This document shows, one piece after another, positions 4,116 through 4,543 of a stretch of 26,856 nt of DNA. The notes below the pieces were generated by a model, which saw only the letters and a list, made by a program, of their open reading frames with translations, was not told the DNA's origin and did not search any database. Position 1 is the stretch's first letter. The number at the start of each line of letters is the position of its first letter. A program made the position numbers and the translations under genes. The DNA is from a bacterium (GTDB lineage: Bacteria > Patescibacteriota > Saccharimonadia > CAILAD01 > BJGX01). The stretch spans positions 1 to 26,856 of the forward strand of contig JAHFOQ010000001.1 of NCBI GenBank assembly GCA_023261595.1, in the 5' to 3' direction.

Positions 4116-4543
4116 CCCTGGCTTAAAAATAATGTAATAATAAATGCCAGGGTAAAAGCGCCCGCAGGAGCGTAGGGACGGCTGGAGCTTCACCGGCGCC
4201 TCGCTGTCTCATCCTGCCACGCTAGCTCCGCATACTTCTACCTTCGGGTAAAGGTTGCCGAGTTAGCTCACGTGTCGCTCGATGCCGACAGCCCTTGTGG
4301 CCACGCTTAAGGTTGTGCGTGCTTAGTTAGTTGGCGAGGTAACGGCTCACCAAGACAGGCAAAACAATCTAGGATCTTTGTGGGGCCGAGCCCACAGAGC
4401 TTCCGACCAGTTCTTTACCATTCGCGGACAGACAACAAAGCCCTCCCTCTGTTTTCTGTTCGTTGCCCCAGGGAGACTCCCGCCCACCACCGCCTCTCCC
4501 TGGGGCAAAACTCTCGCTCTGCCAATATGGCAGGGCTTTTTTC
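4116..4543 (+). ncRNA. GC-rich structured RNA candidate, class unknown; contains a 16S rRNA 5'-domain-like segment
   Basis: Sharp GC rise in an AT-rich genome with no convincing ORF. Candidate promoter TTGCGT(4086)-18 nt-TAAAAT(4110). Opening hairpin CCCTGGC(4116)...GCCAGGG(4152). Perfect 12-bp stem GCCCCAGGGAGA(4465-4476)/TCTCCCTGGGGC(4495-4506). Closes with a terminator hairpin at 4516-4536 followed by a T6 run. Segment 4218-4360 resembles 16S h8-h11 ('CCGCATA..ACCTTCGGG..GCTTAGTTAGTTGGCGAGGTAACGGCTCACCAAGAC'). Confidence 0.4.

Follow-up and report, generated by a model that had tools for sequence, protein, structure and literature searches.

A conserved structured RNA with a copy of 16S rRNA helix 11 beside a vault-protein gene in a Saccharibacteria-like bacterium: a candidate rRNA mimic

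Introduction

Mimicry of ribosomal RNA (rRNA) by messenger RNA leaders that bind ribosomal proteins is an established principle (PMC3616713), and PMC10931766 cites Meyer 2018 on rRNA mimicry in such leaders. Nearly all known cases come from operons for ribosomal proteins, where they sit in the 5' leader; uS17, one of the six primary assembly proteins of the 30S subunit, is not among them. Likewise, no uS17-binding regulatory RNA or leader is known, and PMC10931766 mentions uS17 as a primary binder only. S17 is a primary-binding protein that contacts helix 11 (h11) of the 16S rRNA together with h7, h9, and h20/21 (PMC4604426, PMC3359968), while bS20 binds h6, h8, h9, and h10 (PMC4604426). Here, we describe a non-coding RNA (ncRNA) gene at positions 4088 to 4545 of a 26,856-nucleotide stretch of contig JAHFOQ010000001.1, referred to as the window, from a Saccharibacteria-like bacterium of the candidate phyla radiation (CPR). 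The RNA carries a copy of h11. An earlier, sequence-only reading of the window had noticed a segment resembling h8 to h11 at 4218–4360 and had offered three explanations: an rRNA pseudogene relic, a mimic that binds a ribosomal protein, or a contaminating or chimeric fragment.

A stand-alone RNA gene under purifying selection

We are highly confident that 4088–4545 is a real, selected, separately transcribed, and highly structured ncRNA, in which the h11 copy is the sole detectably rRNA-like part. The elements that define the gene are the following.

4053–4081, + strand: putative sigma-70-type promoter of the ncRNA (TTGACA, 17-nt spacer, CAAAAT, with TG before the -10 hexamer; 10/12 match)
4088–4545, + strand: stand-alone structured ncRNA gene with a conserved core at 4088–4412 (promoter, terminator, fold, and covariation)
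4323–4356, + strand: copy of the 16S helix-11 hairpin (BLAST-detectable span 4319–4357)
4516–4545, + strand: intrinsic terminator of the ncRNA (9-bp stem with six G-C pairs, followed by a T-run; terminator scan)

The start site of the RNA is deduced from the promoter and its 3' end from the terminator, giving a predicted length of about 460 nt in the window species and about 370 nt in a relative. The fold of 4100–4545 has a free energy of -183 kcal/mol, corresponding to a z-score of -7.7.

Comparative data on the RNA come from these two species only. In the relative, the major vault protein (MVP) encoded upstream is 87% identical, its gene 77% identical at the nucleotide level, and fourfold-degenerate sites 42% identical. 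The gene order is shared and consists of MVP, terminator, promoter, RNA, terminator, and tRNA-Ser(CGA). The relative has the same two hexamers in the putative promoter but a different spacer. The terminator hairpin of the window species (4516–4536, then the T-run) is represented at the equivalent place by a different hairpin, again followed by a T-run. The RNA core at 4088–4412 is 80% identical, compared to 42% at the fourfold sites, and most of its elements reach 88–95% (P1 95%, P3 93%, P5–P6 88%, h11 core 92%). Within the h11 block, 32 of 32 consecutive bases are invariant. RNAalifold identified six compensatory pairs in addition to many G-U/A-U/G-C transitions that fit only the + strand. 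Judged by this comparison of sequences, the ncRNA is under strong purifying selection in a Saccharibacteria-like (CPR) bacterium.

A protein-coding gene is excluded by single-base insertions and deletions between the two species at several places of the core. The only open reading frames (ORFs) over the RNA, 4378–4629 and 4380–4730, extend into the tRNA gene. The window-type arrangement was found in three independent contigs (NCBI, ENA, and Logan). The relative is represented by five contigs (L002–L004, L005, and L088), stemming from four Logan runs and one whole-genome shotgun (WGS) record, of which L005 stops before the RNA.

The RNA has no match among the Rfam 15 families, neither at the gathering threshold nor at E <= 10, and only two tRNAs pass gathering in the window. 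The scan included RNase P, tmRNA, SRP, 6S, GOLLD, ROOL, OLE, HEARO, raiA, riboswitches, and group I/II introns, none of which was detected. The best non-tRNA matches at E <= 10 are weak and terminator-like. ARAGORN did not find a tmRNA either.

The likeness to 16S rRNA is confined to helix 11

The two strings on which the sequence-only reading relied are indeed present where it had placed them, with CCGCATACTTCTACCTTCGGG at 4229–4249 and GCTTAGTTAGTTGGCGAGGTAACGGCTCACCAAGACAGGC at 4321–4360. Its proposed parallel to E. coli 16S positions of about 170 to 270 is borne out by the second string, which falls on 244–275 with 27 of 32 identities, whereas the first shows no meaningful 16S likeness. 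This segment, TTAGTTAGTTGGCGAGGTAACGGCTCACCAAG, is detected by blastn with E 0.002 against the window and E 1e-4 against the rrnH operon. The 34-mer at 4323–4356 agrees at 31 of 34 positions with a generic bacterial h11 string, with no matches in 100 shuffles. When the whole RNA was compared by BLASTN with phage records (2.3 Gb) and plasmid records (7.3 Gb), all matches were to true 16S genes, belonging to Priestia, Bacillus, Enterococcus, and Listeria, together with a Salmonella 16S RefSeq entry. These matches cover query positions 235–273, equivalent to window 4319–4357 only, at 90–94% identity, and the rest of the RNA drew none. The h11 core reaches local-alignment z-scores of 9–17 against four 16S sequences, relative to shuffles. 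For h11, the resemblance thus holds up on alignment to small-subunit (SSU) rRNA. Conversely, a covariance model built on the RNA recovers the true h11 of E. coli 16S (242–277, 25.6 bits, E 3e-5) and that of a Microscillaceae 16S, with E about 3e-5.

The copy comprises the terminal two-thirds of 16S helix 11 in both sequence and fold. Its fold is the exact 16S secondary structure of the Rfam consensus, with the middle helix, the AG bulge, the terminal helix, and the loop. The copy departs from the generic h11 at three positions. Two of these changes compensate each other, putting a U4327-A4355 pair in place of C-G, so that the middle helix of h11 in the Rfam SSU consensus is maintained. The third difference is a C·A mismatch. 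Such a mismatch in h11 also occurs in real Bacteroidota 16S rRNAs, and its GGCGGGG...CCCACC form is shared by two non-rRNA copies in viral contigs (L101 and L165). A 34-nt match of such quality is too close to have arisen by convergence from scratch, so the h11 segment was almost certainly copied from an rRNA gene and then kept.

Outside this hairpin, the likeness ends. The region 4218–4321, previously read as h8 to h10, has z-scores of at most 1.3 against the matching part of the four 16S sequences, with 15–56% of shuffles scoring equally well. Of the h8–h11-like segment, only about 39 nt (4319–4357; hairpin 4323–4356) stand, while its h8–h10 portion scores no better than chance and is not preserved in the relative, where 'CCGCATA' reads CTCATATA. 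The string ACCTTCGGG represents a C(UUCG)G tetraloop hairpin. Downstream, 4358–4420 is at chance level as well (z <= 1 against the four 16S sequences). The bacterial SSU family of Rfam (RF00177, gathering threshold 50 bits) has no match in the window, and none at E <= 10 on 3950–4750. The observation that no other 16S signatures flank the segment was therefore correct.

Several candidate extensions of the likeness were considered and rejected. A mosaic of rRNA helices is excluded by a BLAST comparison of both versions of the RNA with the E. coli rrnH operon (16S, 23S, 5S, and spacer tRNAs), in which only h11 matched. An extension suggested by MAFFT (TCTAGG..., GACCAG) is not significant against shuffles, and the faint likeness by eye alone of 4149–4172 (GGGUAAAAGCGCCCGCAGG) to 16S nucleotides of about 103–127 (GGGUGAGUAACGCG...) is not claimed. 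A fragment of a split 16S rRNA supplied in trans is judged unlikely, as CPR 16S genes are reported to lack h6, h10, and h17, but not h11 (PMC9297842).

Copies of helix 11 in phage and viral contigs outside rRNA genes

The IMG/VR collection was searched with a degenerate h11 23-mer, TTGGNGRGGTAAYGGCYCACCAA. The viral copies were thus ascertained with an h11 pattern, and some IMG/VR contigs may include host flanks. The pattern matches 92 contigs, and 91 of the 94 loci checked lack other 16S similarity. Two control segments, 22-mers from the most conserved 16S regions, match only four contigs and one contig, respectively, and stray 16S genes therefore do not explain the h11 matches. The copies occur in about 12 independent flanking contexts. 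Nearly all of these hold the 5' AUCAGCUAG and 3' GGCGACGA strands of h11, which lie outside the search pattern.

The main family comprises 81 IMG/VR loci (L097 3960–4072 and 80 in L098–L186) in lambdoid enterobacterial prophages of 45–50 kb. The motif is part of a complete h11, with the 5' AUCAGCUAG and 3' GGCGACGACGG strands located outside the search pattern. For 29 distinct copies, RNAalifold predicts a three-way junction in which an outer stem of 17 bp is joined to an exact 16S-type h11 and to a hairpin that varies; 11 pairs are compensatory. The element is about 110 nt long, unannotated, and without an Rfam family. It is present in 102 of 5426 complete E. coli genomes, for example in E. 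coli M37H (NZ_CP092233.1 1573970–1574106; L188 3001–3137). It is located 40–60 nt before the first ORF of the pL (early-left) operon, at the position of the phi80 N 5' untranslated region (UTR). The prophage h11 copies are closer to the bacterial consensus than to the E. coli host's own h11, which argues for selection and against recent stray capture.

Beyond this family, h11 copies lie in ten or more contexts that are unrelated to one another. The loci L120 692–796 (+) and L160 10068–10185 (-) score above the Rfam SSU gathering threshold (71 and 68 bits, model positions 106–311). In both, 95–99 positions of h8–h10 are deleted and replaced by 3–8 nt, resulting in a compact h7+h11+h12 arrangement, and neither locus has other 16S similarity. 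L187 retains h11 and h12, while L181 and L101 retain h11 only. The fold was also assessed over 13 non-rRNA copies and three true 16S sequences, where 96.6% of the h11-fold cells are paired, three of 11 pairs are compensatory, and 0 of 500 shuffles reach this level; as the search pattern fixed six of the eight terminal-helix pairs and partly constrained the other two, the unbiased evidence lies in the middle helix and flanks only. Between the window RNA and the phage elements there is no homology outside h11, as the covariance model R1 aligns positions 238–270 only in all 91 viral matches. In a limited literature search, no account of CPR or phage elements that bear h11 outside rRNA turned up, and nothing relevant on bacterial vault RNA or phage or CPR rRNA-helix mimics.

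Some of the individual contigs have further features. The giant-virus metagenome-assembled genome (MAG) contig L107 contains a complete h11 and h12 at 120–152 (-) without a 16S gene, and complete h11 copies without a 16S gene are also found in unrelated high-GC or giant-virus contexts in L101, L165, L184, and L187. L147 1080–10214 is a phage tRNA array with at least 17 tRNA matches and a GOLLD RNA (8407–8841, 196 bits). Its h11 copy (core 4429–4451) is situated between tRNAs at 4251–4324 and 4578–4653, mirroring the window RNA, which precedes a tRNA gene. On the minus strand of L160, ten type II hammerhead matches (39–54 bits; gathering 37) lie between 3416 and 9018 on the same strand with an irregular spacing of about 280–1580 nt. 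L094 2643–2668 (-) is an h11-like hairpin, TAGTTGGGGAGGTAACGGCTCACCAAG. It precedes, by about 170 nt, a gag-like ORF that has a CCHC zinc knuckle. L094 is a 2.8-kb 'viral' contig without SSU rRNA and may be a eukaryotic retroelement or virus.

Architecture of the RNA

The predicted fold of the RNA contains the following elements.

4088–4115, + strand: single-stranded 5' tail (predicted fold)
4116–4152, + strand: P1, a hairpin with a 7-bp stem and a conserved 23-nt A/U-rich loop (RNAalifold; 36/38 identical to the relative)
4156–4308, + strand: multibranch domain closed by P2 (4156–4160 / 4304–4308; RNAalifold, covariation)
4164–4217, + strand: P3 (93% identical to the relative, 50/54)
4221–4267, + strand: P4 with a UUCG tetraloop (62% identical, pairing kept via compensatory changes)
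4273–4290, + strand: P5 (P5–P6 88% identical to the relative)
4291–4301, + strand: P6 (RNAalifold)
4310–4370, + strand: P7 arm, with an outer stem (4310–4316 / 4364–4370) bearing the h11-like hairpin (RNAalifold)
4326–4328 / 4354–4356: middle helix of the h11 copy, followed by the AG bulge at 4329–4330
4331–4338 / 4346–4353: terminal helix of the h11 copy, with the C4335·A4349 mismatch and the loop GUAACGG at 4339–4345
4372–4403, + strand: P8, a hairpin 3' of the h11 arm (RNAalifold; 62% identical, two compensatory pairs)
4412–4510, + strand: extension of about 100 nt with two hairpins (about 4424–4463 and 4464–4507), present in the window species only (alignment gap in the relative)

The 'h8–h10-like' strings of the sequence-only reading fall in P4. 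The outer stem of P7 displays one compensatory and two wobble changes (alignment columns 226–228 / 282–284). The order P2[P3–P6], h11, P8 parallels the order h7[h8–h10], h11, h12 in 16S rRNA; this parallel may be a mere coincidence of topology.

Two loops are worth mentioning in addition to h11. The P1 loop (UUAAAAAUAAUGUAAUAAUAAAU) is almost pure A/U and 95% conserved despite saturated synonymous sites, making it a second candidate interaction site. The 13-bp hairpin at 4464–4507 closes a C-rich loop of 18 nt (CUCCCGCCCACCACCGCC) and is missing from the relative; it could serve as a seed of the anti-Shine-Dalgarno type.

Genomic neighbourhood and distribution

The RNA gene is flanked by the following features.

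1413–4010, + strand: homologue of the major vault protein, 865 aa (Pfam MVP_shoulder 2e-27, Vault_3, Band_7)
4019–4040, + strand: intrinsic terminator of the MVP gene, a hairpin followed by a T-run (terminator scan)
4608–4697, + strand: tRNA-Ser(CGA), the downstream neighbour of the RNA (ARAGORN, Rfam; same neighbour in the relative)

The MVP start is the ATG at 1413, and start and stop were confirmed by translation. The protein is 100% identical to P0001, and its homologues carry the JGI and NCBI name 'major vault protein'. The gene is the upstream neighbour of the RNA gene and lies outside it. The hairpin of the MVP terminator is kept in the relative via compensatory changes (ACGACCTAA/TTAGGTCGT versus ACGGCCTAA/TTAGGCCGT). 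Position 4218–4360 sits within a non-coding stretch with a GC content of about 57%. MVP relatives are found in Saccharibacteria, Paceibacterota, and many other phyla. The nearest MVP loci in the genome collection are 'Candidatus Saccharibacteria' MAGs with 69–74% identity.

Further homologues of the RNA were searched for in about 1 Mb of sequence, reaching about 6 kb out from each of 80 other MVP genes from GTDB species representatives and including the closest loci at 69–74% identity, by blastn, nhmmer, and the covariance model R1. None was found there, nor in contigs anchored on the downstream FA_hydroxylase gene. A metagenome scan with a pattern of the RNA independent of h11 returned the known relative again and one chance match in high-GC coding sequence, and neither this pattern nor the h11 block pattern of the RNA matched any viral contig. 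The adjacency of MVP and RNA is therefore limited to two species, with no comparable RNA near the 80 other MVP genes. In 77 of these loci, most gaps after MVP measure less than 200 nt, and the long ones are rich in AT and not in GC, leading to the rejection of a general linkage between MVP and the RNA.

Three Saccharibacteria-like lineages share the synteny tRNA-Arg(GCG)-MVP-[variable genes]-tRNA-Ser(CGA), which spans 366–4697 in the window. Other genes, and not the RNA, fill the slot in L006 and L008, the next-closest MVP loci. As far as the available data go, the RNA thus appears lineage-restricted and to occupy a variable slot. L092 1–190, from a relative with an FA_hydroxylase of 85% identity, has a second copy of the tRNA-Ser(CGA) 3' end, CCCACTCTCTCCGCC, some 165 nt further downstream, with a short insert flanked by this duplication. 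Going by its sequence, this duplication resembles an att-like scar and indicates that tRNA-Ser(CGA) serves as an integration site.

The remainder of the window encodes methionine sulfoxide reductases, DsbA, and a type IV pilus cluster, consistent with a Saccharibacteria-like organism. No ribosomal genes were found among the 27 ORFs scanned in the window. Directly 3' of the tRNA-Ser, 4853–7900 holds an operon encoding FA_hydroxylase, an FAD_binding_4 oxidase, and a methyltransferase similar to cyclopropane-fatty-acyl-phospholipid synthase. Such a lipid-modifying operon is notable for a reduced-genome organism. The type IV pilus or T2SS-like cluster at 18771–25422 (-) includes a T2SSE ATPase, a T2SSF platform protein, and several proteins with the prepilin-type N-methylation motif, and is typical of episymbiotic Saccharibacteria. 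MVP homologues in general are widespread in CPR and many bacterial phyla, with 5696 matches at E <= 1e-20 among 8000 candidates scored.

A candidate mimic of the uS17-binding site

Among the three explanations first offered for the rRNA-like segment, the mimic that binds a ribosomal protein fits best. The recurrence of h11 copies in unrelated non-rRNA phage contexts speaks for it. Given this recurrence, the hairpin is probably a site used again and again to bind some factor connected with the ribosome, and not a broken rRNA gene. On our best reading, the window RNA would be an rRNA mimic that binds an h11-recognising protein, probably uS17. The h11 module would have been copied from an rRNA gene and retained as molecular mimicry, so that the RNA would present, off the ribosome, the surface normally bound by an h11-recognising factor. 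The best candidate for this factor may be uS17, which in its free form would be bound through the h11 arm. The RNA could then serve as a sponge, sense how rRNA and ribosomal-protein supply are balanced, or carry uS17 into another ribonucleoprotein. The prophage element, placed directly before an ORF, might be a cis-acting version of the same idea. The position after a vault-protein gene also leaves room for an RNA that would deliver uS17 or itself into a vault-like particle.

The inference of a mimic rests mainly on the recurrence of h11 in unrelated phage RNAs. That structured transcripts other than rRNA have acquired h11 repeatedly and independently suggests a functional unit that is portable. 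The two mini-domains of L120 and L160, which keep h7 and h11 and lose h8–h10, three of the four bS20 helices, have the expected look of a mimic of the S17 site. Every step from an h11 copy to uS17 binding is nonetheless inferential, and the reading as a whole, a selected ncRNA whose h11 copy acts as a mimic of the uS17 site, is put forward tentatively, at somewhat less than even chances.

Several points weigh against it. uS17 was picked solely because the literature names it as an h11 binder. The comparison covers two species, and the 32/32 identity of h11 is not statistically distinct from the 36/38 of P1 and the 50/54 of P3. The copy in the window is less complete than those in phages, with the 3' strand GACAGGC instead of GGCGACGA. 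A closing helix of the h7 type is not recognisable in the window RNA, and the Rfam SSU model scores nothing. Since there is no homology to the phage elements outside h11, a shared function is extrapolated from a 33-nt module. Finally, the RNA precedes no ORF, unlike ribosomal-protein leaders and the prophage element, and is followed by a terminator and a tRNA gene.

A serious alternative, although on the unlikely side, is that h11 is a functional module with a partner other than uS17, such as a nuclease or toxin, a defence or counter-defence component, or an assembly or processing factor, or that it is a self-contained folding or tertiary-contact module. The recurrence in phage and prophage RNAs and in the 'RNA islands' of L147 and L160 suits a phage-host conflict as well as it suits titration of a ribosomal protein, and the window RNA occupies a variable slot beside a tRNA gene, an integration hot spot. 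However, we know of no h11-specific nuclease, toxin, or modification enzyme. L120 and L160 moreover retain exactly h7+h11(+h12), including the helices reported as S17 contacts (PMC3359968). For a mere structural module, covariation of the terminal stem would be expected, but six of its eight pairs are invariant across contexts, although these are the pairs that the search pattern had fixed. A further reading concerns origin and is compatible with the mimic of the uS17 site: the RNA may have been acquired from, or be a remnant of, a phage or integrative element, with h11 as a phage invention and maybe little function for the bacterium. The different content of the slot in L006 and L008 within kept synteny, the att-like duplication of the tRNA-Ser 3' end in L092, the discovery of h11 copies mainly in viral contigs, and the occurrence of the RNA in two species only are in line with this. 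Yet neither an integrase nor any other mobile-element gene is present in the window, integrases usually target the 3' end of a tRNA whereas the RNA is on the 5' side, purifying selection has been strong since the species split with dS near saturation, and homology to the phage elements does not go beyond h11. We consider such an origin with little function improbable.

The location next to MVP raises the idea of a bacterial 'vault RNA', in which the RNA would be the partner of the adjacent MVP and the h11 hairpin its handle. In the window species the promoter begins 12 nt past the MVP terminator hairpin (4040 to 4053), the order MVP-terminator-promoter-RNA is kept in the relative, and eukaryotic vaults are ribonucleoproteins (10.1101/872010). 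This is set against the lack of any homologue of the RNA in the 6 kb or so next to 80 other MVP genes and the post-MVP gaps in 77 loci, which are mostly short or, where long, AT-rich. Eukaryotic vault RNAs are also different, being pol III transcripts of about 100 nt without rRNA resemblance. On these sequence comparisons a vault-RNA role is not supported, and we regard it as very unlikely. A decaying, functionless 16S pseudogene fragment, conserved incidentally or via gene conversion from the real 16S gene, has in its favour that the segment is too similar to 16S for convergence and hence almost certainly copied from an rRNA gene. The insertions often carried by CPR rRNA genes offer a route for such ectopic copying (PMC9297842). 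The flanking non-rRNA parts, however, are equally conserved, at 88–95% compared to 42% at neutral sites, the unit has its own conserved promoter and terminator, and the U-A compensatory pair keeps the helix. Moreover, homologous recombination usually requires a stretch as long as this island of 34–39 nt, or longer. The pseudogene is therefore scarcely credible. An assembly chimera or contamination, with nothing in its favour beyond the oddity of an rRNA-like patch, has a negligible probability given the same layout in the three independent window-type contigs and a diverged copy with compensatory changes in the four Logan runs and the WGS record. Both readings, like the coding gene with its indels, are excluded because the RNA is conserved, with compensatory pairs, in a second species.

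Returning to the proposed mimic of the uS17 site, its widest form is bold, and we think it unlikely to hold in full. In this form, the h11 copy would mark an unrecognised, widespread RNA class that mimics the uS17-binding region of the 16S 5' domain (h11, sometimes h7 and h12). Its users would be lambdoid prophages, other phages, a giant-virus MAG, and one CPR bacterium or more; through these RNAs they would sense or manipulate free uS17 and thereby the state of ribosome assembly. The window RNA would be the first chromosomal stand-alone member. What draws attention is that an ultra-small episymbiotic bacterium has an independent small RNA, strongly conserved, which contains an rRNA helix in nearly exact form, and that a prophage leader with h11 is found in about 2% of complete E. 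coli genomes. If h11 in these RNAs binds uS17 or another h11-specific factor, mobile elements and reduced-genome bacteria would have a new way to read or disturb ribosome biogenesis. It would also give a function to the unannotated prophage leader, directly testable in E. coli. Sub-threshold or partial 'SSU rRNA' matches in phage genomes should then not be dismissed as junk.

Comparison with known systems

At a modest level of claim, the window RNA is a variant of a known principle, rRNA mimicry; its reach is uncertain, with the chromosomal RNA known from two species. The direct template is 16S helix 11 (E. coli nucleotides 240–286; RF00177 positions of about 237–283). Window 4323–4356 has the same sequence, 90–94% identical to Firmicutes and Salmonella, and the same fold, with a 3-bp middle helix, the AG bulge, an 8-bp terminal helix, and a GUAAYGG loop. 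In contrast to the template, the copy is located outside an rRNA gene, without h7, h8–h10, h12, or other 16S likeness. Other sequence stands in place of the basal h11 helix and of the 3' strand of the internal loop (GGCGACGA), and the hairpin is mounted on a different outer stem inside an RNA of 370–460 nt. With respect to membership in RF00177, the RNA has the h11 sequence and structure, but lacks an SSU model score, colinear h7–h10 and h12–h13, and neutral decay.

Eukaryotic vault RNA resembles the window RNA in being linked to MVP, which in the window is by gene adjacency only. There is no similarity in sequence or size, and other bacterial MVP loci lack this adjacency.

The phage elements are closer. 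The prophage leader of the L097 type is also a non-rRNA structured RNA with h11 on a long outer stem and an extra hairpin after it. Unlike the window copy, it contains a complete h11 including the basal helix, and it is positioned in a 5' leader, whereas the window RNA is not a leader and shares homology limited to model positions 238–270. The mini 5'-domains of L120 and L160 are likewise non-rRNA loci that retain h11, and their order of closing helix, h11, and hairpin is like P2[P3–P6]-P7-P8 in the window. They have recognisable h7 and h12 and score above SSU gathering, while the window RNA has no SSU score.

The ribosomal-protein leaders (S8/spc, S15, L1, L20; PMC3616713) are also non-ribosomal RNAs with a copy of a ribosomal protein's rRNA site, and the logic proposed for the window RNA, titration or sensing of a free ribosomal protein, would be alike. 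It shares with this class the resemblance to an rRNA site, but not the location in the 5' UTR of a ribosomal-protein operon, being a stand-alone terminated transcript with no ribosomal-protein gene nearby. While such leaders usually share a few key nucleotides with the rRNA, the window RNA is nearly identical to it over 34 nt.

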